Source of the DNA: an uncultured Anaerolineae bacterium
GTDB lineage: Bacteria; Chloroflexota; Anaerolineae; JACRMK01
DNA length: 61,108 nucleotides
Reading direction: 5' to 3'
Assembly (NCBI GenBank): GCA_964509505.1
Contig: CAZDYP010000001.1
Span: 1-61,108, forward strand
Below the pieces are notes generated by a model. The model ran no database searches. It saw only the letters and a list, made by a program, of their open reading frames with translations, and was not told the origin of the DNA. A program made the position numbers and the translations under genes. This document shows, piece by piece, positions 7,525-50,700 of this stretch (position 1 is the stretch's first letter; each line of letters opens with the position of its first letter).

Positions 7525-9213
7525 TCACCCTTCAACCCTCTTCGACACCACCTGCGCCCCTGTCGGCCCGCTCACCCATCCGCCGAATATCGCAGAGAAC
7601 TTGCCCGCGTCGCCGCCGGCGACGACGAGGTGGATGTTGTTGGGCGACGCGAATTTGGGAATGCGTTGGTTTAATTGTTCGTTGGTGAGTTGGTTCGCAT
7701 GTTGCACGCCAAAGCGTTGCGGCGGGATGCCTTCGCCGCAATCGTCATCGCGCAAGAGTTCGCGCAACGGACGCGCCGTTGCCTCTTGAATACGATTGCG
7801 AATGTTGGCTTTCGTCCAGCCGTCGCGTTTCAACGTCTCGACATGCTCAGGACAAATCACGAGCATCACATCGCCGTAGTTGTGCAGCTTCGGATGCCAG
7901 CAACTTTCGAGCGCGAGCCCGAAACTCGTGGCGAGCGCGCGGGCGGTGCGCGAGAGCTGGTCGGCGATGCCGCGCGGCCCTTCAAGCGCGAACACCGTCA
8001 CAACATTCTCTTCTTTTTTGAAACCCCGCTCCACGTGCAACGGCTCCCACACACTCACTTCCTCGTTCTCGGCAAAGCACAGCCCAAACTTCGCGGGTGT
8101 GCCAAGCGCTGAACGCTCGACGCCGCCAGGCTTCGCGCCGCCGACGTTAGCCAGCGTCAGCTTGAGCGCGCGTCCAATCGTCGCGTTAGCGCGATTGCCA
8201 TGTCCCAACGCATTCAGTCCCGCATTCATGCCAATGCGCTGACGAATGGGCCCGTTGACGACGATGACGGGCGTCGCGCCCCACGTTGTCGCGTTGACGC
8301 CGTGGATGTTGAACTCGTCGGTGCAAACCGCTTCCAGCGCGGCGATGACGACGGGCAGATACTCTGGCTTACAACCCGCCATCACCGCGTTGATGGCGAC
8401 CTTCTCAACGGTGGCGGGCGCCAGGTTCGGCGGCACAATTGCCACCACATCTTGCGGATGGCGCGTTGTGCCTTGCAACATACGCAACACACGCTCAGGT
8501 GTTGGTGGCACGACGGGCAAGCCATCGGTCAAGCCTTGCGCAAACATGAACTCGAACTCGTCGTCGGCTGATGCAATCTCGATGCGGCGCGCACGCAATG
8601 GACTGTCTTCCGCTTCAGCCTGCAATCGTTCTACGATGCCGGGCTCAACAGACTTTGAGCCACAGCCCGGGCGCCAATCGGGGAGAGTGTTCCAGTCAAT
8701 ACTGATATTACGTGCTGGTGTCATTGCGAGCGTTTTTTGCGAAGCAATCTCCGTGCTGTCTGAGGGAGATGGCTTCGCTTCGCTCACCATGACTGTGTCG
8801 CGTGAGTTGATCGGAATACTGACTACTGAATACTGAATACTGGCTACTAACGATTGCCACTCGTCTTTGCGATAGCCGATGAGGCGGCGCAGCTCGTGTC
8901 CTTGTGCGTCGGCGAGGATGAGGGTCGGCACGGTTTCGATAGCGTAACGATATGACACATGCAACGCGGTGTCATCGAGTATTGGCAACGTGAGGTGATG
9001 ACGCTCGATGAGTACGTCGTTGCTTTCTTGTCCAACGCACCAGATGTTGACTGCGTCGCCATACGCGCGGTGCATGGCTTCGATGAGCGGCAGCGTGAGG
9101 TTGCACGTCTGACAATCTTCGCGGACGAAGCAGAGGAGCGTGGGGCGGGTAGTGGGGAAGGTGCATGATTGCCCTTGAAGGTCATTGAGAGTGAATGTGG
9201 GAAGTGTAGTCAT
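7525..9213 (-). CDS. fusion ORF: N-terminal thioredoxin-like domain (CQTC) + repeat-derived linker + ~370-aa conserved domain of unknown function
   Basis: 562 aa. N-terminal ~130 aa is TlpA-like (FVREDCQTCNL). The linker is encoded by heptamer repeats and a 74-nt palindrome. C-terminal domain carries DGLPVVPPTPERV and AINAVMAGCKPEYLPVV. Confidence 0.6.
   Translation of the reverse strand: MTTLPTFTLNDLQGQSCTFPTTRPTLLCFVREDCQTCNLTLPLIEAMHRAYGDAVNIWCVGQESNDVLIERHHLTLPILDDTALHVSYRYAIETVPTLILADAQGHELRRLIGYRKDEWQSLVASIQYSVVSIPINSRDTVMVSEAKPSPSDSTEIASQKTLAMTPARNISIDWNTLPDWRPGCGSKSVEPGIVERLQAEAEDSPLRARRIEIASADDEFEFMFAQGLTDGLPVVPPTPERVLRMLQGTTRHPQDVVAIVPPNLAPATVEKVAINAVMAGCKPEYLPVVIAALEAVCTDEFNIHGVNATTWGATPVIVVNGPIRQRIGMNAGLNALGHGNRANATIGRALKLTLANVGGAKPGGVERSALGTPAKFGLCFAENEEVSVWEPLHVERGFKKEENVVTVFALEGPRGIADQLSRTARALATSFGLALESCWHPKLHNYGDVMLVICPEHVETLKRDGWTKANIRNRIQEATARPLRELLRDDDCGEGIPPQRFGVQHANQLTNEQLNQRIPKFASPNNIHLVVAGGDAGKFSAIFGGWVSGPTGAQVVSKRVEG
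8720..8793. repeat. 74-nt nested palindrome (GTCATTGCGAGCG ... GCAATCTCC family), copy inside an ORF
   Basis: Arms GTCATTGCGAGCG/CGCTCACCATGAC and GCGAAGCAATCTCC/GGAGATGGCTTCGC; translated in frame as SEAKPSPSDSTEIASQKTLAMT. Confidence 0.7.
8814..8848. repeat. heptanucleotide tandem repeat (5 x NNNTACT) inside an ORF
   Basis: GAATACT GACTACT GAATACT GAATACT GGCTACT; translated as VASIQYSVVSIP. Confidence 0.7.
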
Positions 9214-9235: not shown

Positions 9236-11755
9236 TTATTGTAATCCCTTCTCCTTCGCCCACTGTCGCACCTGTGAGCGCGCCGTGAAGCCTAACTTGT
9301 TGAAGATGTTGCTGACGTGCGTCTCAATCGTGCGTTCACCCAACACCAACTTCTCGGCGATCTCGCGGTTGCTCAGTCCTTGCCCGACGAGCGCGGCGAC
9401 TTCACGCTCGCGCGCGGTCAAGCCACCTACAGACCCGAAGGGTTTGGCAAACCCTTCGGGTCTCTCTGGAACTTGCAACAACTCCGCTTCGGCGAGTGCT
9501 TGGCGCAATGTCAACTTGCTTCCCGCTTCCCACGCGACGTTGAACGCTTCGTCGCCCAGTTGCGTTCGCAATGCCTCACGCTCGCGCTCAAATTCGGGGC
9601 GATCATCAGGTGTGATGACTCTATAAACGAATGAGTGTCGTGTGTTCACTGTACTGAGCCAGCGCGCTGCATTCTGCCCTTGTCCAACCACACGCGCCAG
9701 CGCGGCAAATCCCAACAGACAATGTGCTAATGGAAATGTAGTTTCCGACTTACGTGCTAACACCAGCGCTTCTGTGAGATGTAGGCGTGCTTCCCTGTAA
9801 TGCCCTTCAGTCGCCGCGACTCGTCCCAACGCAACGAATATATTATCGGTGCCTATGGGATTGTCCAGTTTGTCTCGGATTGCCAGTCCCTCTTCCAGCC
9901 ATTGTCGCGCCCGCGCGTAATCCCCTTGCACGCGCGCTGCTTCTCCAAGCATGTAGGACGCATTCGAGATCAGGAGATCATAACCTCCTTCCCGCGCCCG
10001 CGCCAGCAGGTCTGCAAAAATGGCTTGTCCTGCCGGATAATTTCCTGTATGGTAATCCAGTGAGCCAAGCGCCATGAGTGAGACATAGATTTGAGCAACG
10101 TCACCCGACTCGCGCGCTAAGCCAACGCTCTCATCTAAGAGGACACGCGCCGTGGCGAGGTCGCCCTGTCTCCCAACAGCAAGGGCTTGTGCAACCAAGG
10201 TGCTCGCCAAAAAGCTCTTATGCCCCGTTTGTCGCAAGAGCGACAGACTACGCTCGGTGAATGCACGTGCGTTGGGCATGTCACCTTGCATAAACATAAA
10301 ATGTGCTGCCAAACGCAAAGCACGACCATACCAGGTGCGCTCTTCGGCGGGCGCGGTAGTGTCAGTTTCAAGCTGTGGATTGAGCGCCAATGCCTGCTCA
10401 AGCCACTGTCGTCCTTCGGCAAGGTGGCTGTACACATGCCATAACACATACACCCTTACACTCAAGCGCAACGCTGCTGCTGGGTCGGGCGTGTTCATCG
10501 CCCAACCCAACGCCGCGCGCAAATTGTCCACCTCGCGCACCAGACGCTGCCACTTATCCAGTTGCACAACAGTCATACTGCTTGGCGCAACGGTTGGGGT
10601 AAACGCTAAGAAGTACGCGAGATGGCGCGAGCGCACCGCCTCACTCTCCCCCGACTCCGCCAACTTCTCCAACGCATACTCACGGATCGTCTCCAACATG
10701 CGATAGCGTGGCGCAACGCTCTCCTCATCCAACAGCACCAACGACTTGTCCACCAGATGCGTCAGCATCTCCAGAATGCCAGTCGGCAGTAGCCAGTCGT
10801 CAGTCGGCAGATGTATCTGCTGGCTACCGACGACTGAGGACTGGCTACTGCACACTGCTTCTGCCGCCTCCAACGTCCACCCGCCCGCGAACACGGACAA
10901 GCGTCGCAACAACACCCGCTCGGGTTCGGATAACAGATTGTGACTCCAATCAATCGCCGCGCGCAAGGTTTGTTGGCGGCGCAACGCGGTGCGGCTGCCG
11001 CCCGTCAGCAAGAGGAAACGACTGTGCAAGCGTTCCGCGACTTGTTCGACGCGCATGGCTTTGACGCGCGCCGCTGCCAACTCAATGGCGAGTGGGATGC
11101 CATCCAAGCGTTGACAGATTTGCGCGACCGCTGCGGTGTTGGCGTCGGTCAACTGAAACGTAGCTTGCACCGCCTGTGCGCGGTCAACAAACAACTGCAC
11201 GGATTCCAACTGCGCGAGCTCGGTAGTTGGAATTTGAGAATTGGGATTTGGGATTTCTAGCGACGGCACTTGAAAGGTGCGCTCACCTGTGATGCCGAGC
11301 GCCTCACGGCTGGTGGCTAAAATTTTCACGTGGGGACAGGCGTGCAACACGCTATCCGCGAATTGCGCGCACGCATCAATCAGATGTTCACAGTTGTCGA
11401 GCAGGAGCAACAACTGTTTGGCGCGCAACCAATCCAGGAGCGTCGCCATGATGGGGCGCCCTGGTTCTTCGCGCACACCCAAGACGGTGGCAACGGTTTG
11501 CGGGACGAGCGCGGGGTCGGCGAGCGGCGCGAGTTCGATGAACCACACGCCATCGGGGAACGCCAGACCCGAAGGGTTTTGGAAACCCTTCGGGTCTGCA
11601 ACCTGCAACGCGAGGCGTGTCTTACCCGTGCCGCCCACGCCCGTGAGCGTGAGCAGATGCGTCGTGGCGAGCAGCTGCTTGAGGTGCGTCATCGCCTGTT
11701 CGCGTCCGATGAAACTGGTCGGTTGAATGGGGAGGTTATGCGGGATCGTTGGCAT
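9236..11755 (-). CDS. large ATP-binding LuxR-family regulator (STAND NB-ARC-like NTPase + TPR + C-terminal LuxR/GerE HTH), copy 1
   Basis: 839 aa; Walker A GVGGTGKTRLA, LLLLDNCEH Walker B, TPR-like middle, C-terminal LTAREREVAALVGQGLSNREIAEKLVLGERTIETHVSNIFNKLG. Confidence 0.85.
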   Translation of the reverse strand: MPTIPHNLPIQPTSFIGREQAMTHLKQLLATTHLLTLTGVGGTGKTRLALQVADPKGFQNPSGLAFPDGVWFIELAPLADPALVPQTVATVLGVREEPGRPIMATLLDWLRAKQLLLLLDNCEHLIDACAQFADSVLHACPHVKILATSREALGITGERTFQVPSLEIPNPNSQIPTTELAQLESVQLFVDRAQAVQATFQLTDANTAAVAQICQRLDGIPLAIELAAARVKAMRVEQVAERLHSRFLLLTGGSRTALRRQQTLRAAIDWSHNLLSEPERVLLRRLSVFAGGWTLEAAEAVCSSQSSVVGSQQIHLPTDDWLLPTGILEMLTHLVDKSLVLLDEESVAPRYRMLETIREYALEKLAESGESEAVRSRHLAYFLAFTPTVAPSSMTVVQLDKWQRLVREVDNLRAALGWAMNTPDPAAALRLSVRVYVLWHVYSHLAEGRQWLEQALALNPQLETDTTAPAEERTWYGRALRLAAHFMFMQGDMPNARAFTERSLSLLRQTGHKSFLASTLVAQALAVGRQGDLATARVLLDESVGLARESGDVAQIYVSLMALGSLDYHTGNYPAGQAIFADLLARAREGGYDLLISNASYMLGEAARVQGDYARARQWLEEGLAIRDKLDNPIGTDNIFVALGRVAATEGHYREARLHLTEALVLARKSETTFPLAHCLLGFAALARVVGQGQNAARWLSTVNTRHSFVYRVITPDDRPEFEREREALRTQLGDEAFNVAWEAGSKLTLRQALAEAELLQVPERPEGFAKPFGSVGGLTAREREVAALVGQGLSNREIAEKLVLGERTIETHVSNIFNKLGFTARSQVRQWAKEKGLQ
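9432..9464. repeat. 33-nt palindrome of the GACCCGAAGGGTT family, in frame in LAL-1 linker
   Basis: AGACCCGAAGGGTTT-GGC-AAACCCTTCGGGTCT; translated ERPEGFAKPFGSV just before the LuxR HTH. Confidence 0.8.
10779..10850. repeat. heptamer-built inverted repeat (CAGTAGC/CAGTCGG words) in frame in LAL-1
   Basis: Left arm 10779-10810, right arm 10817-10850; encodes SSQSSVVGSQQIHLPTDDWLLPTG. Confidence 0.7.
11227..11257. repeat. heptamer run (TTGGRAT words) within LAL-1 coding sequence
   Basis: TTGGAAT TTGAGAA TTGGGAT TTGGGAT TTC; encodes EIPNPNSQIPT. Confidence 0.6.
11564..11598. repeat. 35-nt perfect palindrome, in frame after the P-loop of LAL-1
   Basis: CAGACCCGAAGGGTTT-TGG-AAACCCTTCGGGTCTG (16-bp arms); translated ADPKGFQNPSGLA. 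Confidence 0.85.
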
Positions 11756-12783: not shown

Positions 12784-15306
12784 CTAATCTAGTCCCTGCT
12801 CCTTCACCCACCGCCGCACCTCCGCGCGGCGCGTGAAGCCCAACTTGTTGAAGATGCTGCTGACATGCGATTCTACTGTGCGCTCGCCAATGACGAGCGA
12901 TTCTGCGATCTCGCGATTGCTCATGCCTTGTGCGACGAGTGAAGCGACTTCGCGCTCGCGCGCCGTCAACCCACCAAAATCTTGTTTGGCGGTTGGGATT
13001 TGGGGTTTGGGAGTTGGGATTTCTGTAGGTTCGGTGAGCGCGAGCGCGACTGCTTCATCCAACGTCATGCGTCGTCCTGCTTCCCACGCCGCATTGAAAT
13101 CCGCTTCGGAGAATTGCATGCGCACCGTGGCGAGGGTATGCTCTTGTTCACGTTGATTAACAGGCCAACGATACTGACTACCTCTGGCTTCAAGAAAGGC
13201 TTGGATAGCTCCACATAGTCGTGTGGCTCGTTCCAAGTGTCCTCGTGCAGCTCTCACGCTGGCGAGCGTCATCAGGCAGGCGGCCAGGTTTGGAATGTCT
13301 TCCAATTCTTTTGCCAGCACAAGGCTTTCTCTCGCCAACATTTCTGCCCGCGCAGGGTCGCCTTGCTGCACTGCTACCGCCGCCATAAACTGGAGCAATA
13401 CTGCCCGCACGTTTTTGTCTCCCGTTGCACGCTGTAGGGCCAAACCTTCCTCGCCCAACTGTTGCGCCGTGGCGTAGTCGCCCTCAGCCAAAAAAAGACT
13501 CCCTAGTCTACTGAGTGTGCGGGCGATTTGAATTTTGTCACCGAACTCCCGCGCGCGAGTCAAGCCCTGTGCATACCATGAGTGCGCGGCGGCATAATCA
13601 CCTTGAGACTCTGCTACCGACCCTAACCCGAGCAACGATACTACCGTTGTTGCTTTATCACCTAGGGTCCGACCGATAGACAGGCTTTCCTCAAGGTGTG
13701 CTTGTGCTGTTGCGTAGTCGCCGTGCATCCTAAACATATTGCCCAGGAGTCGCAGCGAAAGAGCCATGCCTCGTCTATCTCCAACGTCCCGCGAGATACT
13801 CAATCCCTCTTCACTGTATGAGCGTGCTAAGGCGAGGTCGCCTTGCCGAAAAGCTAATCTGCCAACAGCGATAAGCCCCCTTGCACGCGCGACGGTTTGT
13901 GCTTCCGCTCCGACGTGCGCTAAGGCAGCGGTTAAACGCTCACGTCCTTCACTCACAGGACCGCGTGAAAACCAGAAACTCCACAGCGCCGCTGCCAACC
14001 TCAGGCCCGCAACCGCGTCGCTGCTGTGCAACGCCCAATCCAGCGCCGCTCGGATGTTATCGTACTCCACCTCCAACCGATTGAACCATATCGCTTGCTC
14101 AGGACCTTCTAGTTTCGACTCGGCAGCTTCAGCGAACTGCACGAAAAAGGTGAGATGCCGCTCGCGCACTGGCTCGCTCTCACCTGAAGCCAACAACTTC
14201 TCGCGCGCATATTGCCGCACCGTCTCCAACATTCGGTAGCGTGTCTGTCCCTCAAACTCCTCTGTGATTACAAGCGATTTGTTGACGAGTTGGGTTAGCA
14301 AGTCCAGCACCTCATCAGTAGCCAGTAGCCAGTCGTCAGTAGTCAGATGGGGCTGGCTACTGGTTACTGACGACTGTCTACTGCATACCGCCTCCGCCGC
14401 CTCCAGTGTCCACCCACCCGCGAACACGGAGAGGCGTAACAACAGGGTGCACTCAGGCGCGGTCAACAAACTGTAACTCCAATCAATCGCCGCGCGCAGC
14501 GTTTGTTGGCGCGGCACCGCCGTGCGACTACCGCCCGTCAACAAGCGAAAGCGATCATCCAAGCGCGCTGCAATTTGCTCGACGGAGAGAGCCTTCACAC
14601 GCGCCGCCGCGAGTTCGAGCGCGAGCGGGATGCCATCCAAGCGTTGACAAATCTGCACGACGGCAGCTGCGTTGGCTTCCGTCAACTGGAAATGCGATTG
14701 CACCGCCTGTGCGCGCTCGACAAACAGTTGCACGGATTCCAGTTGCGCGAGCTCAGCCGTTGGGAGTTGGGAATTGGGAGTTGGGAGTTGCAGCGAGGGC
14801 ACTTGAAAGGTTTGTTCACCCGCGATGCCGAGTGCCTCGCGACTCGTGGCTAAAATCTTCACATCGGGGCACGCATGTAACATGGTGTCCGCGAATTGCG
14901 CGCACGCATCAATCAGATGTTCGCAGTTGTCGAGGAGGAGTAACAGAGATTTCGCACGCAACCAATCCACGAGCGTCGCCGTGATGGGACGCCCCTGTTC
15001 TTCGCGCACACCCAAGACCGAGGCGACGGTTTGCGGCACGAGCGAAGGATCAGCGAGTGGCGCGAGCTCGATGAACCACACGCCATCGGGGAACGCCAGC
15101 CCCGAAGGGTTTTGGAAACCCTTCGGGGCTGCAATTTGCAAGGCGAGGCGGGTCTTGCCCGTGCCGCCGACGCCCGTGAGGGTGAGCAGCTGCGTGGTGG
15201 CGAGCAGTTGCTTGATTTGCGCCATCACCTGTTCGCGCCCGATGAAACTCGTCGGTTGGAGGGGAAGATTATGTAAAAGCACGGACCCTCCGCTCACTCT
15301 CGACAT
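12784..15306 (-). CDS. large ATP-binding LuxR-family regulator (STAND NTPase + TPR + LuxR HTH), copy 2
   Basis: Track ORF starts at 15333 inside a heptamer array. ATG at 15306 (MSRVSGGSVLLHNLPLQPTSFIGRE) aligns with the LAL-1 N-terminus. Walker A GVGGTGKTRLA; C-terminal LTAREREVASLVAQGMSNREIAESL. Confidence 0.85.
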   Translation of the reverse strand: MSRVSGGSVLLHNLPLQPTSFIGREQVMAQIKQLLATTQLLTLTGVGGTGKTRLALQIAAPKGFQNPSGLAFPDGVWFIELAPLADPSLVPQTVASVLGVREEQGRPITATLVDWLRAKSLLLLLDNCEHLIDACAQFADTMLHACPDVKILATSREALGIAGEQTFQVPSLQLPTPNSQLPTAELAQLESVQLFVERAQAVQSHFQLTEANAAAVVQICQRLDGIPLALELAAARVKALSVEQIAARLDDRFRLLTGGSRTAVPRQQTLRAAIDWSYSLLTAPECTLLLRLSVFAGGWTLEAAEAVCSRQSSVTSSQPHLTTDDWLLATDEVLDLLTQLVNKSLVITEEFEGQTRYRMLETVRQYAREKLLASGESEPVRERHLTFFVQFAEAAESKLEGPEQAIWFNRLEVEYDNIRAALDWALHSSDAVAGLRLAAALWSFWFSRGPVSEGRERLTAALAHVGAEAQTVARARGLIAVGRLAFRQGDLALARSYSEEGLSISRDVGDRRGMALSLRLLGNMFRMHGDYATAQAHLEESLSIGRTLGDKATTVVSLLGLGSVAESQGDYAAAHSWYAQGLTRAREFGDKIQIARTLSRLGSLFLAEGDYATAQQLGEEGLALQRATGDKNVRAVLLQFMAAVAVQQGDPARAEMLARESLVLAKELEDIPNLAACLMTLASVRAARGHLERATRLCGAIQAFLEARGSQYRWPVNQREQEHTLATVRMQFSEADFNAAWEAGRRMTLDEAVALALTEPTEIPTPKPQIPTAKQDFGGLTAREREVASLVAQGMSNREIAESLVIGERTVESHVSSIFNKLGFTRRAEVRRWVKEQGLD
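12986..13023. repeat. heptamer run (TTGGGNT words) in frame in the LAL-2 pre-HTH linker
   Basis: TTGGCGG TTGGGAT TTGGGGT TTGGGAG TTGGGAT TTC; encodes EIPTPKPQIPTAKQ. Confidence 0.65.
14316..14383. repeat. heptamer-built inverted repeat (CAGTAGC words) in frame in LAL-2
   Basis: 31-nt arms 14316-14346 / 14353-14383, 23 of 31 positions complementary by hand alignment; encodes SRQSSVTSSQPHLTTDDWLLATDE. Confidence 0.7.
14760..14794. repeat. heptamer run (TTGGGAG words) within LAL-2 coding sequence
   Basis: TTGGGAG TTGGGAA TTGGGAG TTGGGAG TTGCAGC; encodes LQLPTPNSQLPT. Confidence 0.65.
15097..15131. repeat. 35-nt perfect palindrome, in frame after the P-loop of LAL-2
   Basis: CAGCCCCGAAGGGTTT-TGG-AAACCCTTCGGGGCTG; differs from the LAL-1 copy by a paired A>C / T>G change that keeps the stem. 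Confidence 0.85.
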
Positions 15307-15312
15307 CAAATC

Positions 15313-15347
15313 TGATGACTGAACACTGAACACTGATTACTGAACAC
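15313..15347. repeat. heptamer run (TGAACAC words) at the LAL-2 5' end / divergent promoter region
   Basis: TGATGAC TGAACAC TGAACAC TGATTAC TGAACAC. Confidence 0.7.
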
Positions 15348-22555: not shown

Positions 22556-22564
22556 AGGGATATT

Positions 22565-22591
22565 GTAGGGCAAATTGCCAATTTGCCCTAC
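22565..22591. repeat. perfect 12-bp hairpin GTAGGGCAAATT-GCC-AATTTGCCCTAC between permease stop and usp start
   Basis: Same word family as the 51-nt elements at 25595 and 25697. Confidence 0.75.
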
Positions 22592-22595
22592 ACCA

Positions 22596-25103
22596 TTAAC
22601 GCATGAGTTGATACGGTACGCTGGCCACGATTTGCTTGGGACGAAACAACAATAATTCGAGCTTGATGAGCTGCGCTGTTTGGTTGTGCAGCGCATGATG
22701 CCACCAGTGTTTCGGCGCAATCTCAGATAGCATCACCACCACGTCCGCGTCGGGACGCTCTTCGGTGATGGCGTCAAGATATTTGATGAGCGAGCCCGTG
22801 ACGGTGCGATACGGCGATTCGATGATTTGCAGCTCGACGCCAAGTTGCGCGGCTTGCCACGCCTGATGCAGCTGTTCCGCTTCGGCAGGGTTTTCGGTGA
22901 CGGAAACAGCGATGACTTCGGGCGCGATGGTGTGCGCGATGGCGAGCGTGCGTGCGACGGGACGATCCACCCGCGCGATGGGCACGATGACGATGTTGCA
23001 AGTTGTCGCGGGTGTGAGGCTGCCATCTGGATTGGGCGCAGCGAGCATGGGCGGTATCGTGATTTTGGCTGGGGTGTGGATCGAAGCATCTTCACCGGCA
23101 GGATGCGACATAGGCGTGATGATGGGCGTGGCGTCGGCAAAGGGGACATTGACGACGATGTGGCGTGGGCGCAACAACAACAATTGGAGTTTGATGAGCA
23201 GAGCCGTGCGATGGTTCACAAACAAATCCCGCCAGCCTTTGGGGGCGATTTCGGGCAGGACGACGATGATGTTGGCGTTGGGATGTTGCGTCGTTACCTG
23301 ATCAATGTATTGCAACAGCGCCGTCGGTACCGAACGACCGCGCGCTTCTTCTACGACGAGCGGCACACTGCTGCAACCGTCTTGCCATTCACGCTTGAGC
23401 TGTTCGCTGGCTGCGGTTGTGGGCGCGATGAAGATCGCGGTGACGTCGTGGGCGATGCGATGCGCAAAGGACAAGGCGCGTTTGGTAACCTGATTCACAT
23501 GCGCCGCAGGCACCAGCACGATGTTGGTGGAGGCTATCGGCGTTGTGGCGGGCGTCAGGCGTACGTCTTCTTGGTAATGATCGTAGTGTTTTTTGACGCG
23601 CGTGAAGAAGAGGACGATGGGGGGAATGAGGGCGATGACGATCCATGCGCCATCTGTGAAGCGTGAGGTCGCTAAGACAAGAAACACGATGAAGGTGGTC
23701 GTCATGCCGATGGAGTTGATAAGTGTGTTGCGTTGCCAACCCGTTTCACGCAGCTTGCGCCAGCGCATCACCATGCCTGCTTGTGAGAGTGTGAATGAGA
23801 TGAACACGCCCACTGCATATAAGGGCAGCAGATTGTGCGTGTTCGCTTTGAACAAAATAACCAGCAGAATGGATAAAAATGCCAGCACAAAGATGCCGGT
23901 GCTGAAGACGAGGCGATGGCCGACGCGCACGAAGAGGCGTGGCATGAAGCCAGCGCGCGCAATGATGGCGGAGAGACGCGGGAAGTCGGCAAATGCGGTA
24001 TTTGCCGCCAGCACTAAAATCAAGGTTGTGCTGATTTGCAGAAACAGATAAGCGGGATACAAAAATGGTTCTTGGAATACGATGCGCGCAATTTGGGACA
24101 AAATCGTTTCGCCATCTTCGGTCGGCACGATCGGGTAGAGTTGTGAGAGGGTGGTGATGCCTATGAACATGCTAATCAAGATAGCCGCCATGACGCCGAG
24201 AGTGCGCGCCGCATTCTGTGATTCGGGCGGCTTGAACGCAGGCACGCCATCGGCAATGGCTTCGACGCCTGTCAGCGCGGTGCAGCCTGCCGCAAAGGCC
24301 TTCAGCAAAACCCAAGCCACCAATAAATCGGTGCTATGGGGAGGGATGATTTGCTGGGGGGGCAGCTCGGGGCGCAAGATTGGCACGAAGTAACGCGTGA
24401 GTCCTGCCACAACGAGTACGGCGATTGAAACAATGAACGCATAGGTTGGCAGCGCGAATACATTTGAAGACTCGCGTAACCCGCGCCAGTTCATTACAGC
24501 GAGAATGAGCACAAAGCCTATGGCCATCAGCACATTGAAAGAGCGCATGATTGGAAAGGCTGAGACAATCGCATCCACGCCGGACGAGACGCTGACTGCA
24601 ACGGTCAATACATAGGAAATCATCAAAGCCACGCCTGCCGTGAGCCCGAAAAGGGTGCCGAGGTTTTCGCGCGCGACGATGAACGAGCCGCCGCCGGTTG
24701 GATAGGCTTTGATGGTTTGGCGATACGAAATGGCGACGATCAGCAGCAGCAACGCAATGAGAATCGCAATGGGCCCTGTGTAGATGAAGGCGACGCTGCC
24801 TAGGACGACGAGCTGCAACAAAATTTCTTGCGTCGCATACGCGACCGACGAGAGCGCGTCGGATGAGAAGACAGCCAGCGCCTTGCGTTTATCGAGTCGT
24901 TCATGCAGCGCGCGATGAGAGGCAATCGAGGAACCGCCGAGCCATTGGCGGAAGCGCCCCAGCGGCCCATGCGCCGCATAGGGAAAGCGCTCGCGCCGAA
25001 TCACTTTGTCGGCAGGATGCGCGCCCTTCACGGTCTCGCCGCGCACACGGGGGCGTGGCGTAGTAGGACTACGAGGAGATTTTTCGGAACTCATACCAAG
25101 CAC
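22596..25103 (-). CDS. APC-superfamily permease with duplicated cytoplasmic C-terminal domain
   Basis: 835 aa; ~12 TM N-terminal half typical of APC transporters; two homologous ~130-aa C-terminal modules (NIVLVPAAHV..LPEIAPKGW.. and NIVIVPIARV..LSEIAPKHW..); GTG 25103 or ATG 25094 start. Confidence 0.75.
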   Translation of the reverse strand: MLGMSSEKSPRSPTTPRPRVRGETVKGAHPADKVIRRERFPYAAHGPLGRFRQWLGGSSIASHRALHERLDKRKALAVFSSDALSSVAYATQEILLQLVVLGSVAFIYTGPIAILIALLLLIVAISYRQTIKAYPTGGGSFIVARENLGTLFGLTAGVALMISYVLTVAVSVSSGVDAIVSAFPIMRSFNVLMAIGFVLILAVMNWRGLRESSNVFALPTYAFIVSIAVLVVAGLTRYFVPILRPELPPQQIIPPHSTDLLVAWVLLKAFAAGCTALTGVEAIADGVPAFKPPESQNAARTLGVMAAILISMFIGITTLSQLYPIVPTEDGETILSQIARIVFQEPFLYPAYLFLQISTTLILVLAANTAFADFPRLSAIIARAGFMPRLFVRVGHRLVFSTGIFVLAFLSILLVILFKANTHNLLPLYAVGVFISFTLSQAGMVMRWRKLRETGWQRNTLINSIGMTTTFIVFLVLATSRFTDGAWIVIALIPPIVLFFTRVKKHYDHYQEDVRLTPATTPIASTNIVLVPAAHVNQVTKRALSFAHRIAHDVTAIFIAPTTAASEQLKREWQDGCSSVPLVVEEARGRSVPTALLQYIDQVTTQHPNANIIVVLPEIAPKGWRDLFVNHRTALLIKLQLLLLRPRHIVVNVPFADATPIITPMSHPAGEDASIHTPAKITIPPMLAAPNPDGSLTPATTCNIVIVPIARVDRPVARTLAIAHTIAPEVIAVSVTENPAEAEQLHQAWQAAQLGVELQIIESPYRTVTGSLIKYLDAITEERPDADVVVMLSEIAPKHWWHHALHNQTAQLIKLELLLFRPKQIVASVPYQLMR

Positions 25104-27046: not shown

Positions 27047-27679
27047 ATGATGCAAGAATTGACTATTGCGTTGCCGAAAGGTCGTTTGCTCGAAAAGTCG
27101 TTGCAGACGTTAGCCGCGGCGGGCTTGTCGTTTCCTGACGCACATGCGGATTCACGTCGTTTGATGTTCAACGATACGCGCAAGTGGACGCGCGCCATTC
27201 TCGTCAAGCCTGTGGATGTGGTGACGTATGTTGAGCATGGCGCGGCGGATGTGGGCATCGTTGGCGAAGATGTGGTGCACGAATCGGCGGTGGATGTCTT
27301 GCAACCTTTGACGCTTCCTTTCGGGCAATGTAGAATCGTCGTTGCGGGACGCCCCGACCAGCGCGACCTCAACTTTCGTCTGCTGACGAATTTGCGTGTG
27401 GCGACGAAATATCCGCGTCTGACGCGCACACACTTTTTGCAACGCGGTCTCAGCGCCGAAATCATTGCGTTGAGTGGTTCGATTGAACTGGCGCCCGCCA
27501 TTGGTCTCGCCGACTTGCTGGTGGACGTGGTGGACACGGGGCGCACGCTCAAAGAAAATGGCTTGATCGAGCTTGAAACCATCATGCGCTGTTTTGCCTG
27601 CGTCATCGTCAACCGCGCCAGCCAAGTCATCAAGACCGACAGCATCAACCAATTGCTAGGAGGAATTTCTGATTTTTGA
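27047..27679 (+). CDS. hisG: ATP phosphoribosyltransferase, short form
   Basis: 210 aa; LTIALPKGRLLEKS, VKPVDVVTYVEHGAADVGIVGEDV, VATKYPRLT, LVDVVDTGRTLKENGL. Confidence 0.9.
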   Translation: MMQELTIALPKGRLLEKSLQTLAAAGLSFPDAHADSRRLMFNDTRKWTRAILVKPVDVVTYVEHGAADVGIVGEDVVHESAVDVLQPLTLPFGQCRIVVAGRPDQRDLNFRLLTNLRVATKYPRLTRTHFLQRGLSAEIIALSGSIELAPAIGLADLLVDVVDTGRTLKENGLIELETIMRCFACVIVNRASQVIKTDSINQLLGGISDF

Positions 27680-27708
27680 TTTTGACCCGTAAGCCAAAAT
27701 CAAAAATC
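27671..27708. repeat. perfect 14-bp heptamer hairpin spanning the hisG stop codon
   Basis: GATTTTTGATTTTG (27671-27684), 10-nt loop, CAAAATCAAAAATC (27695-27708); more AAAAATC units run to the next ATG at 27720. Confidence 0.85.
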
Positions 27709-27719
27709 AAAAATCAAAA

Positions 27720-28400
27720 ATGCGGATAGACCTCCATACTCATACCTTCTTTTCCGACGGCGCCTTGTTGCCCAGCGAGTTGTTGCGTCGCGCTGTCGTC
27801 AAAGGCTACAGCGTCATCGCTATCACCGACCACGCCGACGCCTCGAATCTGGAAGAGCTCATTGGTCGTTTGCAGCATTTCGCGCAGCAGCAGCATGGCG
27901 ATTTCCCGATCGAATTATTGATTGGCGTCGAGCTCACGCACGTGCCGCCCGCGCGTATTCCGTTGCTGGCGCAAGAAGCAAAACATTTTGGCGCGGACAT
28001 CGTCGTCGTGCATGGCGAGACCATGACGGAGCCAGTGGCGAAGGGGACAAATCGCGCCGCCGTCGAATGTGAGTTTGTGGACATCTTGGCGCATCCAGGT
28101 TTCGCGACGTTGGACGAAGCGCGCATCGCGGCGGCGACAGGCGTGCATCTGGAGATTACGTCCAGTCGTGGCCATGCGCTGACCAATGGGCATGTGGCGC
28201 AAGTCGTGCGCGAGGCGGGCGCAAAGCTCATCGTCAATTCCGACACACATCGCGCCGATGATTTGATGGATCAGGAGCGTGCGATTGATATTGCGTTGGG
28301 TGCAGGCTTGAGCGTGATGGAGGCAGAGATTGCGGCGGTGCAGAATCCGCGAGCATTGGTGGATCGAATTTTGCAACGACGACATGCGCGGGTGGTGTGA
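27720..28400 (+). CDS. PHP-domain phosphoesterase (candidate histidinol-phosphatase)
   Basis: 226 aa; MRIDLHTHTFFSDG, ITDHAD, VVVHGE, NSDTHRADD metal-ligand motifs; position inside the his operon. Confidence 0.7.
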   Translation: MRIDLHTHTFFSDGALLPSELLRRAVVKGYSVIAITDHADASNLEELIGRLQHFAQQQHGDFPIELLIGVELTHVPPARIPLLAQEAKHFGADIVVVHGETMTEPVAKGTNRAAVECEFVDILAHPGFATLDEARIAAATGVHLEITSSRGHALTNGHVAQVVREAGAKLIVNSDTHRADDLMDQERAIDIALGAGLSVMEAEIAAVQNPRALVDRILQRRHARVV

Positions 28401-32199: not shown

Positions 32200-32244
32200 A
32201 ATCCCCAATCCCCAATTCCAACCCCCCAATTGGGATTGGGGATT
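32200..32244. repeat. heptamer hairpin (CCCCAAT words) between hisB and hisH
   Basis: AATCCCCAATCCCCAATT ... AATTGGGATTGGGGATT, one-base bulge. Confidence 0.8.
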
Positions 32245-32260
32245 GGGGGGGATTGTTACG

Positions 32261-43120: not shown

Positions 43121-46100
43121 ATGCGTCCTTTCATCCCTCATTTTATCCACCGCCAATTTGTCGCGCGGCGTCTGCAAGGTCGCTTCCACGCCGTCGCGCT
43201 CTTCGTTGATCTCTCTGGCTTCATGCCACTCACCGAAGCGCTGATGCAGCACGCAAAGGATGGCGCGGAAATTTTGACCGACGCGCTCAATCACATTTTC
43301 ACTCAGCTCGTGCATGAAGTCTATGCGCGCGGCGGCTTCATCTCCAATTTCGCGGGCGATGCGTTCACGGCGTTGTTTCCCTTGAATGCCAAGCAAGCGG
43401 CGCCACACGCGACACGCACTGCGTTCTTCGTGCAAGCGTTCTTTGCAAAGCATCATACCCTACATACGAAGTATGGCGCTTTCGAGTTGGGTGCGAAGTG
43501 CGGCCTCGCAGTGGGCGATGTTCAGTGGGGCATTCTCGGCGAGCAAGACCGCTACACCTATTTCTTTCGCGGCGAGGCAATAGATGCTTGCGCGACGGCG
43601 GAGCATCACGCAGAGCGCGGCGAGATTGTCGTAGAGCAAGCAGTGTGGTCACGGTTGGGCGACGCAGCGCAAACTGAACCGATACCCAACACGCCTTATC
43701 ACAAACTCGTCGCGGATCAAAACGCGTTGCCAACCAAGCGTATTCGCCCCCCAGTACTCAACCATGATACCCTCGCGCGCTTCGTCTTGCCCGAAATCAT
43801 TGACCTGACTGCGCCTGCGGAGTTCCGTGAGGTGTGCAGTATTTTTATCTCCATTGAACAAACCGCGAACCATGAGGACTTTCATGCGTTCATCATCATG
43901 CTCAGGGCGTTGGTTGCGCAACATGGCGGCTATTTCAATCGCTTGGACTTCGGCGATAAGGGTGCAGTGGTGTTGGTGTTGTTTGGCGCGCCCATCGCGC
44001 ATGAGAATGACATAGAACGTGCAGTGAATTTCTTGTTGGCTTTGCAACAGTCACCGATTGCGGTGCGTTGGCGTGCAGGCTTGACAGTCGGCGCGGCGTA
44101 TGCAGGCATCATGGGTGGCAGGGAGCGTTGTGAATATACGGCGATGGGCGATGTGGTGAACTTGGCAGCCCGTTTTATGACACAAGCGTCGTGGAGTGAT
44201 GTGTGGGTCAGTGAAGCCGTGCAGGAACGCTTGCGCCACACACATCACTGGGCGGCGATAGGCAGCTTCTCTTTCAAAGGCGTGAGCAAGCCGATACCCG
44301 TCTATCGCCTAACGGGACAACAGGAGCATGTCGCGCGCGAGTTTTACACAGGCGAGTTGGTGGGGCGCGAAGCAGAGCTCGTGCAGTTGGAAACATTTGT
44401 CCAACCGATCCTAGACCCGAAGGGTTTTGGAAACCCTTCGGGTCTCGCGCGGTTCGCCGGCATCTTGTACCTTTACGGCGAAGCGGGCATGGGCAAGGGC
44501 CGCCTCGCGCATGAGTTTCGGCAACGCCTGACGCGCGCTTATGCGGTCAGTTGGTTCGTCTGCCCCGCCGAAGAAATTTTGCGTCAATCGCTCAACCCCT
44601 TCAAGTATTTTCTCCGCAACTACTTCGGGCAATCGGTCACGCACACACCCGCCGAGAATCGTAAGCGCTTCGACGCGCAATTGCAAAGCGTCATCGCGCG
44701 CTTGCCCGCGGCTCATCCTGACACACCTATGCTGCGTCACGAGCTGGAGCGCACCCGCTCGTTCTTGGGCGCGTTGGTCAATTTGCATTGGGACGATTCG
44801 CTCTACGCGCAAGTCGAGCCGCAACTGCGCTTTGAGAACACGCTCGATGCGGTCAAGCAGTTGTTGAAGGCGGAGAGTTTGCTGCAACCCGTCGTTCTCG
44901 TCGTAGAAGACACGCACTGGCTCGACGCCGATTCGCAGGCGTTGCTCACCATGTTGACGCGCAACATCGCCGCGTATCCCATCGCCATCCTGTGCCTCAG
45001 TCGCTATCAAGACGATGGGCGTCCCTTCGCGTTGCCCGTCGCGCCAGAGACGCCGCAGCAAACGCTCGACTTGAATCGCCTATCGCCCGATGGCTTGCGT
45101 GCGTTGGCGTCGCAAACGCTACGAGGCGCGGTGAGCGCGGCGCTGGTGGATTTTCTGGCGGAGAAGACCAACGGCAACCCGTTCTTGGTCGAGCAATTGT
45201 GTCAGCATTTGCGCGAGCGCACGTGGCTCACAACTGATGCGACAGGCGCGTACACCTTGTTGGGAACTCACACCGCCGAAGTGCCAGTCACCATCGGCGC
45301 GGTGTTGATTGCGCGTCTCGACCGCTTGACGATGGAGGTCAAAGCGGTGGTGCAAACGGCGGCGGTGTTGGGGCGTGAGTTCGAAGCGCAAATTCTCTCG
45401 AGGATGTTGAGCGATGACGTGCGGGTGACGGAGAAAATCAAACAAGCAGAAACAGAGGCAATCTGGTCGGCGCTGAACGAGATTCGCTACATCTTCCGAC
45501 ATGCGCTGTTGCGTGATGCCGCTTATGATATGCAGCTGCGCGCCCGTTTGCGCGACTTGCATCGGCTGGCGGGCGAAGCGTTTGAGCAAGTGTATGCTGA
45601 TGACTTAGATAGCCATTACGCGGACTTGGCGTATCACTTTGAGCAAGCGCAAGTGACCATGAAGGCGTTGGTCTATTTGGGGCAAGCAGGCGACAGCGCG
45701 AAAGCGGATTACCATAATCAAGCGGCGTTGGATTTCTACGCGCGTCGGATGACGTTGATGGTTGAGACGGAACAACCGATGGGGTGGCGCATCGCCACAC
45801 GCCTGAAGCAAGGCGAGGTGTTGGAGCTCATCGGCAAATGGAACGAGGCAGATGCGACGTACCATGAAGCGTTGCAGTGGGCGGTGCAAGCTAATGAGCG
45901 TGAATGGCAAGCGCGGGCGCATTACGCGCTCTGCGAATTGTTGCGGCGTAGAGGCAAATACGTCGAGTCACTCGTCTCCGCTGAGCAAGCATTGGTCTTG
46001 TTTGCAGCAATAGGCAACTCACAAGGCTTAGCACAAACATTTGGCACATTCGGTACGATTGCACGACAGCAGGGTAATTATGCGCAGGCAATGCAATGGT

Positions 46101-47655: not shown

Positions 47656-47668
47656 CGCAATAACAGTA

Positions 47669-47733
47669 GCGAATGGCGAATAGCGAATGGCGGATGGTTT
47701 TCAACTATCCGCCATCGGCTATCTGCCATCGGC
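47669..47733. repeat. heptamer hairpin between convergent toxin and giant genes (bidirectional terminator candidate)
   Basis: GCGAATGGCGAATAGCGAATGGCGGATGG, loop TTTTCAACT, ATCCGCCATCGGCTATCTGCCATCGGC; about 21 of 27 arm positions pair, one of them a G-U; right arm reaches the giant gene stop. Confidence 0.7.
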
Positions 47734-50700
47734 TATCTCGCCACGAGCGGCAGATAGACATTTTGTTGACTCGCTTGGGGCGTCAGGTTCACGTTCCACA
47801 GTTGCCGATCATCCCACACCGCCACTTGTGACGGCGTCATCATGCGCCCGCCGACTTGGAAGGTCACGGTGCGTCCCAACACGCCGCAACCGATTGTGTC
47901 TGCGCCTTCCGCAGAGACATGCACCACGTACACGATTTGTCCCCCATAACTTTGAGTTTGCCCCTGCCCACAGACCACAGCCTGTCCTGAGCTTGTCGAA
48001 GGATTGATGCGTGCAATCACGCTCATCCCTACGGTGGGCGTGAAGCTCGCGCCCGCTTGGGTGATGCCGTAATAGGTGCTGGGCGGCAGTTGTGCGTTTT
48101 GTGGAGATTCGATGCGCCCTGTGGGTGTCGCACCCTTCAAGAACCACGTGATAGGTTGCGTCACGCTCAACCAGTAGCCTTGCCCAAACTCAAAGGCCGA
48201 CAACGACACCACATAGGGCGGCACATTCGGCGCGTACACTTGCCAGCCATGCGGACCCGCATAGTGATAGACCATGCGCGCTGTTGGGCTAATCGAGGAC
48301 AATGCCTCCGTGACGCTCCGATTCTCCTGAATAGGATAAGCCACGTTGTTCCAGCCTGCATAGGTCAATGGCACAGGATAGGACGACATTAGCGCATAGA
48401 TGCCTTCGCCTTGCGTCGGCGCAATCGCTTCGTTATGATAAACATCCAACGTCGTCGGCAACCGTTGCCACCCCGTACCGTTCCAAAAATAGAGGGACAG
48501 CAAATTTTCTTCGCCTGGCGGCACCTCGCTGCCAGCATAACGGAAGTCTATGCTTGTGTTCGCCAAACTGGCATTGGCGGTCTTCACTAAGCGATAGGCT
48601 GAACCAACCAACGTCGTCCAAGCAGGCGGCGTTGGTACGGTGGAAACGGCTTGTAGCGCGTAGAAGGCACCAACGTTGAACGTCAGGTTCTTGCCGTAGA
48701 TGATGACACGTCCATCACCTGACAACACAGGCGCATCGTCGTTTTGCAAGAAACCAGGGTCGTCATTTTGGAGGAAACCATCATCGTTCTGCAAGAAGCC
48801 GGGGTTGCCGCCTAGCGAGTAATCGCTGATGGCTTCGCGGCGCGGGTCGGCTTCGTTCACCCACACTTGGATGTAACCTTGCGGCGCAGTTTGCGTCAAC
48901 ACGAAGGTCGTCGCCCATTGGTTGCCACCTACGCTGGTCAAGGTCCGCGTTGGCATGGCGTTGGCATTCGCGGGATACAAGCGTGCCCGCAAATTTGGCA
49001 CACTGCTTGCGGTGACGGTCAACACAATGGTGCGCGAGGTGATAGGCGTCACGAGGATGTCGGGTTGCCAACCTGTCTTTTGATAGACTGTGAGTTGTTC
49101 GTTACCCGCGCTGATCGTCTGGCAGCCTACCATTTGCGCCGTGAGGTCATACAGGCACAAGCGGTCGCCTGCACGCGCGCCATAAGCCGTGACCTGATCT
49201 AACTTCGCGCGGCCCGCGTCAAGCAAGCGATTGCCTTGAAAGAGGAACGCACGCGCGCTGCTGCTTGGTTGATAGCGGCTGCCGTCTTGTTGTGTCAGAT
49301 AGAAGATGGGCACGGCGATGGTTTGCGCGGGCGAGAGCGGCGCGACGAAGGCGAGGCTTGGCAGATTCAACGGCAACACGCTGGGCCCCGTGTTGTTCAA
49401 ATTGGGATTCACCCATGGATAGAACGTCTTGATGGTCGCCCATTCAGAGCGGCCCGTGCTTTGTTGGGCAAGCGAAGTTGCGCAGCCCGGCAGCCACGTC
49501 GCTGTGCGTTTGAACTCGCTATAATCATCACGATAGGGGTCAGCCATCGCCGTGTTTGTGCAGGTATCGAGTGGCCGGACGAGGCCATTGGCATTCACAC
49601 TCAAATAGGCATCATCCAAATACAACAAGTAATGACCCAGCTCATGTGCGAGTGTGCGGGGCCAGTCTTCACCAAGTGTGCCGCTCGCCTTGCCATAGCG
49701 ATTCCACGTCGAACCGATGCGAACTTGACCCGGCCCGTATTGCACGGTCGTCGTCACGGGGTCGGTAAGTGTGCGCGTGGCGATGCCGCCTTGCGTTGCG
49801 TTGGGGCGCATGGCGTTGGTGGCATAGAGGCGAATGTCGGCGCTGCTCCAATTCACCTTGTCGTGATAGACGTTGAAGTTGCCAATGGTCGCTTGCCCAT
49901 TCGACCAGTCGTAGAGGAGTTCAGCAGTGCGCTGCAAATCGTATTGGAGTTGGTTAAGGAACGCAGTGTCGTTACGCGCATCCCATTCAAGCGACACGGA
50001 CAAATTGAAGAGGAGGAGTGGCTTGGCGGCGGAGACGGTCAACGTTTGTACGCCCGCTTGTGTCACCGTGTAAGCGTCGAGTCCGTTGACGATAGGCGTC
50101 GCGCTCGTCGCATAGACGGTGTAACTGTTCGTCGCGGAAATGGGATAGAGCGCAATCAAGCGGTCGCCGATGTCGAGTTGTCCACGTCCTTGTAGGTAGC
50201 CTTGCCCATCGGTGCGGAACGGTGTGCCATCTCCGCGTGTGAATGGATTGGCGTCGCGTGTTTGGTTTACAGGTAGGCGATAGACGATAGCATTCGAGAT
50301 CGGTGTGGTGCCCGTGAGGACGCGCACTTGAGTGCCGCGCACGCGGAAGGGGAAAGTGGTGGATGAAGCGTAAGGGCGTTGGAAGAGGGGGACGCTGTTG
50401 GTAAGTGGCTTTAAACTGGGATAGGCTTCGAGGCGGAAGACGACATTGTCGGATGCGCCGAAGAAGCCACTAGCGAACATATCCCATTCATATACATAAG
50501 GTAAGGCTGCAACCATCCACGCGGCACTGCTGAGCGCGAGGTCGTGATTGTTCGCGGTCAAGTCGTAAGCCGTGGAGCCTTTCCCTTCGTTAAAACGCCA
50601 ATAGCCAATCAGTCCAGAGGCATTACTGTGCGAGGGCGCTTGCATCTCTGTCTGAATTTGTGCCTGTGTGCGGACGACGTTCCACAAGCGTACTTCATCC

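Follow-up and report, generated by a model that had tools for sequence, protein, structure and literature searches.

A base-pair swap that preserves pairing in a probable REP/REPIN-type palindromic repeat within LAL genes of an Anaerolineae bacterium

The window analysed here is a 61,108-nucleotide stretch of contig CAZDYP010000001.1 (GenBank assembly GCA_964509505.1) from an uncultured Anaerolineae bacterium of the phylum Chloroflexota. On its minus strand lie two paralogous LAL genes, LAL-1 and LAL-2, with open reading frames (ORFs) of 839 and 849 amino acids. The N-terminal half of each gene contains an in-frame copy of a 33-bp palindromic repeat, and the two copies differ by one swapped base pair. 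The two genes and these copies are:

9236 to 11755, minus strand: LAL-1 host gene, paralogue of LAL-2 (DNA identity 81% in the first 957 nt and about 88% near the element)
11565 to 11597, no strand assigned: N-terminal LAL-1 copy of the repeat, with the consensus sequence and A-T at 11567/11595; encodes DPKGFQNPSGL at the same codon position as the LAL-2 copy
12784 to 15333, minus strand: LAL-2 host gene, coding for a P-loop STAND ATPase with TPR and a LuxR-type helix-turn-helix; the element lies between the Walker A helix and the next strand
15098 to 15130, no strand assigned: LAL-2 copy of the repeat, AGCCCCGAAGGGTTT TGG AAACCCTTCGGGGCT, with the derived C-G pair at 15100/15128; minus-strand peptide APKGFQNPSGL

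With one flanking base on either side, the LAL-2 palindrome reads CAGCCCCGAAGGGTTT TGG AAACCCTTCGGGGCTG (15097-15131) and the LAL-1 palindrome reads CAGACCCGAAGGGTTT TGG AAACCCTTCGGGTCTG (11564-11598). They are separated by just two differences, C at 15100 versus A at 11567 and G at 15128 versus T at 11595. These positions are partners in the stem, and the net result is the swap of one A-T pair for C-G. In the minus, coding strand the changes are GAC to GCC, which replaces aspartate with alanine, and GGT to GGG, which is silent for glycine. The encoded peptides are ADPKGFQNPSGL in LAL-1 and AAPKGFQNPSGL in LAL-2. An earlier interpretation made from the letters alone, referred to here as the sequence-only reading, had reported an A>C change in the left arm matched by T>G in the right arm, with both copies still perfectly paired and a peptide change limited to D to A, and all of this is borne out. 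Two substitutions placed at random among the 30 stem positions produce a compensated pair with P = 0.011. Folded as RNA, the hairpins reach -26 to -31 kcal/mol, with z about -6.

The sequence-only reading also described 16-bp stems. The arms of both copies are perfect over 16 nt, but the repeat proper has 15-bp arms (33 bp, 15098-15130), because pairing across about 120 copies drops sharply beyond arm position 15, from more than 90% through that position to 18-22% one base further out. The 16th C-G pair of LAL-1 and LAL-2 is host flank common by descent.

The repeat has the form AGACCCGAAGGGTTT-NNN-AAACCCTTCGGGTCT, with two 15-nt arms around a 3-nt loop. A scan of the genome collection with the pattern CCCGAAGGGTTTNNNAAACCC returned at least 117 loci, and the matches listed are almost all from Chloroflexota metagenome-assembled genomes (MAGs) of the Anaerolineae, Ardenticatenaceae, Caldilineaceae and Thermoflexia. 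A single MAG (JACRPR01) contains at least 11 loci. A metagenome scan that fixed the inner nine pairs only added at least 120 further loci, and the two scans together give at least about 210 distinct copies, nearly all in Chloroflexota among the matches listed. The copies are dispersed singly. In the window, the core pattern occurs four times, compared with 0.00 times in 100 shuffles, and it has no match in viral contigs. None of the Rfam covariance models reaches its gathering score on the element; the sole match in the window is a tRNA located elsewhere, and around the element there are just sub-threshold matches to microRNA-like hairpins. In the literature library searched, an exact-string query found no paper with GACCCGAAGGGTTT, and no paper there links repetitive extragenic palindromic (REP) sequences with Anaerolineae.

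Each 15-nt arm is itself a mini-hairpin, AGACCC-GAA-GGGT(T/C)T, and AGACCCGAAGGGTCT folds at -4.2 kcal/mol. The element is therefore built of two inverted mini-hairpins 3 nt apart that can jointly fold as one 15-bp hairpin. More than 30 different triplets occur in the loop, and they show a Y-N-R bias. The element spans 11 codons and has no fixed stop in any frame; certain loop triplets give a stop, in the TRRV frame only. The ends AGAC...GTCT are present in 210 of about 250 palindromes of the 15+3+15 design, and the flanks are not conserved. Other 15+3+15 palindromes are numerous at the same loci and follow AGAC-N7-GT(C/T)T NNN A(G/A)AC-N7-GTCT, with each arm palindromic. This pattern suggests a diversified superfamily with conserved AGAC/GTCT ends and a co-varying interior. 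Such related 33-bp palindromes are found at L004, L007, L066, L073, L117, L200, L003, L032, L082 and other loci, for example AGACCTGACAGGTTT TGG AAACCTGTCAGGTCT. An apparent case of identical flanks around different elements in L152, L218 and L003 proved to be an artefact of overlapping flank windows.

LAL-1 and LAL-2 can be aligned gap-free over their N-terminal halves, in which the element occupies the same codon with the same loop and the same orientation. Their flanks are about 88% identical, and 30 identical bases follow immediately past the element. Among the best 120 homologues of the ATPase domain, 118 read ...LQVAADLLEEFPDGVW... and have no insertion. The two homologues with an insertion are P0001 and P0048, whose DNA corresponds to loci L118/L119 and L120 on other contigs and carries the element at the LAL-1/LAL-2 codon. 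LAL-1, LAL-2 and L118 share the loop triplet (CCA on the sense strand) and the orientation, and L120 agrees with them in codon, orientation and the loss of five codons and differs in its loop. This loss becomes apparent when the 33 bp are removed: LQVAA|FPDG remains (HVAS|AFADG in L120), which in all four genes is five codons short of the family consensus LQVAADLLEEFPDG of the 118 uninterrupted homologues. Because the codon and the host-side five-codon loss are common to the clade, and the loop to LAL-1, LAL-2 and L118, the comparison shows that the insertion and the accompanying host deletion were a single ancestral event, older than the LAL-1/LAL-2 duplication. A protein search with a 64-amino-acid query around the insertion matched only short proteins, none of which has the insertion.

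Within this clade, LAL-1 has the consensus element and L118 has one G.T wobble (GGGTCT>GGGTTT, silent). The element of L120, whose gene DNA is about 69% identical to the window genes, reads AGACCTGACGGGTTT TGA AAACCCGTCAAGTCT and combines two compensated pairs (C-G>T-A and A-T>C-G) with a single C.A mismatch. Five random stem substitutions give two or more compensated pairs with P = 0.002. At the pair that is changed in LAL-2, the LAL-1, L118 and L120 elements and the family consensus all have A-T, so the comparison places A-T as the ancestral state and the change to C-G as one made in place in the LAL-2 lineage. In each of the clade's three compensated pairs, one substitution falls at a second codon position and changes the amino acid (D>A, P>L, K>T), and the other is silent at a third position. 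Pairing is therefore kept at the peptide's expense. Across the LAL clade, which was found via the protein, the stems differ by 3-17% compared with roughly 10-30% in the flanking gene DNA.

The same pattern is present across the family. In a sample of 96 distinct copies, chosen so that six outer pairs are unconstrained by the search on both arms, 99.5% of cells pair. Changes on both sides occur at five of these pairs, in 17 cells; shuffles give 0.8 ± 0.8, and 0 of 500 reached the observed number. At the LAL-2 pair position there are 93 A-U, 2 C-G and 1 G-C pairs and no unpaired copy. The sequence-only reading would have been contradicted by an excess of uncompensated arm changes in a larger set of copies, which is not seen: the 17 compensated cells stand against 6 wobble and 7 unpaired cells. 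Five of the 17 are transversion pairs, as is the LAL-2 swap. Arm pairing is thus maintained at the nucleic-acid level, and the encoded peptide is free to change. The proposal that selection acts on nucleic-acid structure rather than on the peptide stands in part, as pairing is kept far above chance and at the peptide's cost; selection is not the sole process that can preserve it, because template switching during replication, or conversion within the palindrome, can do so as well.

Orthologous copies add detail to this pattern. In L134 and L174, which are orthologues downstream of groEL, a derived A is common to both on one arm and the matching T is present in L174 only (C.A versus T-A). This is a two-step compensation caught with the mismatch before and after. 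In the orthologous pair L062/L122, C-G became T-A. Across 20 orthologous pairs with flanks 10% diverged, loops differ at 28% of positions and stems at 0.8%, a stem value that is understated, as an intact core was a condition of both scan patterns. In 6 of these 20 pairs the loop has changed at 2-3 nt together. The copies L219:1107-1139 and L237:1126-1158 have identical stems, flanks 82% identical on both sides and loops that are exactly reverse-complemented (CCC versus GGG). Among 10 assignable transition mismatches, 7 are consistent with G.U on the transcribed strand and 3 are not, a trend that is not significant.

The family is mostly extragenic. More than half of the copies (58%) lie within 40 nt past the stop codon of an ORF of at least 100 codons on at least one strand, compared with 14% of random positions, and 11% lie between convergent ORFs, compared with 0.8% of random positions. 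A T-run is present within 8 nt of 20% of copies and 4% of controls. No target-site duplication was found in a test for one. Only 34 of 196 public copies (17%) are well inside long ORFs, in frame, versus 65% of random positions; the remaining 83% compare with 35%. The intragenic copies interrupt unrelated proteins, including an isopropylmalate-dehydrogenase-like enzyme, a histidine kinase, an Fpg-like glycosylase and a glycosidase, and they favour Gly/Pro-rich frames. The peptide DPKGFxNPSGL is encoded by 19 copies, RPEGFxKPFGS by 11 and TRRVxETLRV by 4. In the orthologous genes of two Ardenticatenaceae MAGs (L061:5110-5142 and L065:4142-4174), an AAACCC...GGGTTT variant is in frame (KPEGFWKPFGF). 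In an alignment of 1100 columns with about 85% identity, 33-nt windows reach 100% identity only over this element and about 12 nt on each side.

A link to transposases comes from related metagenome contigs and not from the window. On the minus strand of locus L218 (129-728), a 200-amino-acid ORF has as its sole family match the NCBIfam model NF047646, the REP-associated tyrosine transposase (RAYT), with E 5e-14 over the full model, together with Pfam Y1_Tnp at E 6e-4. In the Protein Data Bank (PDB), the L218 protein matches E. coli TnpA-REP (4ER8) best, with an alignment that covers the catalytic YIxxNP region. The ATG of this ORF is preceded, 11 nt upstream, by a full element; a variant element, AGACCCCAAGGG..CCCTTGGGGTCT, itself a compensated variant, is in frame inside it just past the HUH motif; and a single arm, AGACCCCAAGGGTCT, overlaps its stop codon. 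Upstream of a homologue with 66% identity on the plus strand of L230 (917-1135) there are one full element, one lone arm and two single arms arranged as a doublet, and the homologue has a further full element at the same internal position. Single arms are otherwise rare: there are 5 in 1.42 Mb of fetched DNA, and 4 of the 5 flank the L218 and L230 genes. Clustering of the ORFs at the 117 genome loci listed gave no transposase among the recurrent neighbours, which were common families only (kinases, ABC transporters and STAND regulators).

The metagenome loci L159, L181, L194, L158 and L239 have a second hairpin family, ATGAAGGGTTT-(CGT/ACG)-AAACCCTTCAT, whose inner core is the same as that of the element. 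It flanks more distant RAYT-like genes (NF047646, E 2e-8, below the cut-off) on both sides, in the classic REP-RAYT-REP arrangement. Inside the RAYT-like genes of L159, L181 and L194, the hairpin that flanks each gene also recurs in frame (peptide GMRDFVNPSF in L194). The presence of their own repeat inside RAYT-like genes could reflect autoregulation or simple self-targeting.

Taken together, the feature in LAL-2 is probably a copy of a REP/REPIN-type 33-bp palindromic repeat that is common in Chloroflexota, was inserted once before the LAL duplication and has had its pairing kept at the nucleic-acid level. If it behaves as REP/RAYT and IS200/IS605 systems do, the repeat is probably mobilised as single-stranded DNA, by a Y1 (HUH) transposase of the RAYT-like kind. 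Because the element is 11 codons long, is open in all six frames save for a few loop triplets in the TRRV frame and makes no target duplication, insertions can be tolerated in permissive protein loops. One such insertion, with the loss of five host codons, entered the loop past the Walker A helix of a LAL/STAND regulator before LAL-1 and LAL-2 arose, and one base pair of the long hairpin later switched in place from A-T to C-G in the LAL-2 lineage. Pairing may be maintained by selection on the hairpin, by template switching within the palindrome that copies one arm onto the other, or by both. The LAL-2 change retains the long hairpin. It also costs each mini-hairpin its 3-13 pair and departs from the conserved AGAC/GTCT ends, so a transposase may no longer accept the LAL-2 copy as a substrate.

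The element shares several features with the REP/REPIN-RAYT systems of P. fluorescens and E. coli (PMC3116915, PMC5581495, PDB 4ER8). It is a short multi-copy palindrome, mostly extragenic and just downstream of genes; it is an inverted-hairpin doublet that can fold as one long or two small hairpins; and its single units flank a Y1/HUH transposase gene whose sole family match is the RAYT model (L218, L230). REPINs and RAYTs are established, and compensatory changes across the REPIN hairpin have been reported as common (PMC3116915). Compensation is thus expected for repeats of this class and known from REPINs; the sequence-only reading had not identified the palindrome as a mobile repeat of REP/REPIN type. 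RAYT group 4 is common in the Caldilineae, a class of Chloroflexota (PMC5581495), and GTAG REPs have been reported in Chloroflexi (PMC3733652). The Chloroflexota element differs in its AGAC...GTCT ends and in its 3-nt spacer, which makes it a perfect 33-bp palindrome, whereas the P. fluorescens GI REPIN has 71 bp between two invariant 16-mers (PMC3116915). Unlike those systems, each arm is itself a nearly perfect palindrome, and about one in six copies is intragenic and in frame, including copies inside RAYT-like genes.

RPE-1 elements, the palindromic elements of Rickettsia, are about 100-150 bp long, and to our knowledge no transposase is known for them. The element described here differs from them in its 33-bp length, its Chloroflexota hosts and its RAYT link; the RPEs were compared by description only. 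REPs inside genes, like RPEs in Rickettsia, are documented (PMC3733652, which cites the RPE work), and they share with the present element the in-frame insertion of palindromes into functional, unrelated proteins, where they add short peptides in loops or linkers. Intrinsic (Rho-independent) terminators are likewise GC-rich hairpins, and the T-run on one strand in 20% of family copies and the 58% of copies within 40 nt of a stop codon are reminiscent of them. Unlike terminators, the LAL copies have no T-run and lie inside ORFs, and ordinary terminators share no single stem sequence across hundreds of loci in many genomes. An intrinsic terminator was rejected for the LAL-2 copy, whose sense strand continues into GGCGTTCC with no U-tract and which lies about 65 codons into the ORF.

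The maintained pairing allows several other explanations. The paralogues have diverged by about 12% nearby, which predicts a few differences per 33 bp, and two unrelated neutral substitutions might have fallen by chance on partner positions with complementary bases. The probability of this is negligible, given P = 0.011 for the LAL-2 pair alone, P = 0.002 for the two L120 pairs, the failure of every shuffle to reach the family covariation, and the non-synonymous second-position change that one of the two substitutions causes. The sequence-only reading had offered independent insertion of two element variants as one of its two explanations. An AGCCCC...GGGGCT variant is indeed present in other genomes (L004, L052, L178, L234), and the quick multi-base loop changes suggest that copies can be overwritten, so that AGAC and AGCC variants inserted separately at one site, or ectopic conversion of the LAL-2 copy from an AGCCCC...GGGGCT donor, have to be weighed. 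Both are very improbable. LAL-1, LAL-2 and L118 agree in codon, orientation, loop triplet and host-side five-codon loss, and L120 agrees in all but the loop; the identity of the flanks continues across the 30 bases right past the element; and the remaining AGCC copies have different loops. Independent insertion is accordingly rejected for LAL-1 and LAL-2. A dimeric operator bound as double-stranded DNA was also discarded, as symmetric selection on half-sites would not favour joint departures from the consensus.

Two further explanations are each part of the proposed mechanism and might also suffice alone. In a purely mutational account, the nascent strand folds back during replication and one arm is copied from the other (template switching or quasi-palindrome correction), so that a mutation is either erased or duplicated onto its partner and no selection is needed. 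Template switching in hairpins yields one-step compensated pairs, multi-base changes and inverted loops (PMC8794818), all of which are seen in the Chloroflexota element. The exact loop inversion between the identical stems of L219 and L237 is its classic footprint (PMC8794818), the loops are more diverged than the flanks and often change at several bases at once, and transversion swaps such as A-T>C-G in LAL-2 have no possible G.U intermediate. Template switching is a mutational process and not an element family, and the documented cases, which are rRNA genes, microRNA genes and E. coli reporters, are not REP-type repeats in coding sequence (PMC8794818). It also does not explain why one arm sequence dominates across a phylum, and uncorrected mismatches persist (L118 G.T, L134 C.A, L120 C.A). 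Rapid loop changes of this kind could also arise by ectopic conversion from other copies. Template switching alone is less likely than not. Classical compensatory selection is on the doubtful side. Here the hairpin, whether formed in mRNA, in single-stranded DNA or as a DNA cruciform, would serve the host at this locus and elsewhere (for example by marking a 3' end or terminator, by stabilising mRNA or by pausing translation in LAL genes), and mismatched intermediates would be selected against. The persistent mismatches fit such selection equally well, and it is consistent with the strong RNA hairpin (-29 to -31 kcal/mol), the survival of copies at orthologous sites with flanks 10-18% diverged, the enrichment right past stop codons and beside T-runs, the acceptance of amino-acid changes to keep pairs, and the G.U mismatches on the transcribed strand in 7 of 10 assignable cases. 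However, this 7:3 trend falls short of significance, and a U-tract is absent from the LAL copies. A hairpin located 150-200 nt into an ORF has no known function, transversion swaps have to pass through an intermediate that is not a wobble pair, and the element is missing from most homologues of the host proteins.

Several points weigh against a REP/REPIN-type repeat with pairing maintained at the nucleic-acid level. The RAYT-like protein of L218 scores below the curated cut-offs (52.3 versus 80 bits for NF047646 and 20.4 versus 23 for Pfam), which sets it apart from the RAYTs of described systems, and tblastn located no RAYT-like gene in the 61-kb window. Mobilisation as single-stranded DNA is argued by analogy, and transposition was not observed. 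The element lacks the GTAG or CGTC tetranucleotide that described REP superfamilies have at one hairpin end. The four window copies are all intragenic while the family is mostly extragenic, which makes the window unusual, and the stem conservation among orthologues is inflated as described above. A bolder version of the proposal would place the repeat in a previously undescribed "AGAC-tagged" superfamily of ultra-compact Chloroflexota REPINs that routinely colonise coding sequences, including their own RAYT-like transposase, with hairpins under host-level selection in genes and the LAL copies as co-opted regulatory hairpins, not tolerated passengers. This version is unlikely.

The window contains two further copies of the repeat and a third LAL gene:

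9431 to 9463, no strand assigned: second LAL-1 copy, with GGC as its loop, read in the other frame (RPEGFAKPFGS) and placed in the linker that precedes the LuxR/GerE helix-turn-helix
40318 to 42867, minus strand: LAL-3, a more distant paralogue that lacks the element (RVASDMLDAFSDGVWW) and shows the site unoccupied
44413 to 44445, no strand assigned: copy in frame (DPKGFGNPSGL) in a 1296-amino-acid adenylate-cyclase/AAA/TPR ORF, just upstream of the Walker A motif

All four window copies are in frame within genes, a density of 4 per 61 kb. The copy at 9431-9463 is missing from LAL-2 and from the closest homologue, L118, and is a later, lineage-specific insertion; new insertions therefore went on after those lineages split, which is indirect evidence for mobilisation of the repeat. 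The element at 44413-44445 is missing from 24 of the 24 cyclase homologues in which the motif could be located. A clean 33-bp insertion in the cyclase gene (PIL|ARFAG) is plausible from these alignments, in which the closest empty-site homologue is just 53% identical.

The loop past the Walker A helix holds other insertions. A LAL paralogue from a sister metagenome (L243:1501-2970; protein P0002, JGI 3300037479) has a different, GTAG-tagged palindrome of about 60 nt in frame in the same loop, GTAGGGGCGCACCTGTGTGTGCGCCC AACG GGGGCAGACACACAGGTCAGCCCCTAC, which encodes HLCVRPTGADTQVSPY about 80 nt past the Walker A codons. The homologues P0034, P0037 and P0056 have odd extra segments in this loop. 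This other palindrome and these extra segments make the loop look like a hotspot for palindrome insertions, or like a site that permits them.

A GTAG-type palindrome, GTAGGGCAAATTG c CAATTTGCCCTAC, is present at 22564-22592, directly past the stop codon of an 835-amino-acid minus-strand ORF (22596-25103), and probably belongs to another REP family of this genome, one of the classical type. The window also has many tandem arrays of heptamers, among them CAGTAGC, TTGGGAT, CCCCAAT and TGGCGAA, at 8814, 10780, 12993, 14316, 14759, 15318, 27696, 31559, 46995, 47669, 54071 and 57825. They often occur as inverted repeats (14312-14373, 27665-27721, 32200-32249 and 47667-47735), and several fall within the LAL-1 and LAL-2 coding sequences. 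We take these arrays to resemble the STRR heptamers of Cyanobacteria. In the L061/L065 comparison, one orthologue has an additional in-frame TGGTCAA array.

The repeat is worth follow-up for its coding-sequence setting, its compact 11-codon design and the material it offers for separating template switching from selection. Orthologous copies with flipped loops and a compensation caught midway are suited to telling the two processes apart. For annotation, the peptides DPKGFxNPSGL, RPEGFxKPFGS and TRRVxETLRV that recur in Chloroflexota proteins are repeat-derived insertions. In one gene lineage, three of three compensated pairs cost amino-acid changes, a clear case from nature in which a constraint on nucleic-acid pairing prevails over the protein code. 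The element extends REP/REPIN-RAYT biology to Chloroflexota, in an unusually compact form that enters genes in frame about one time in six.

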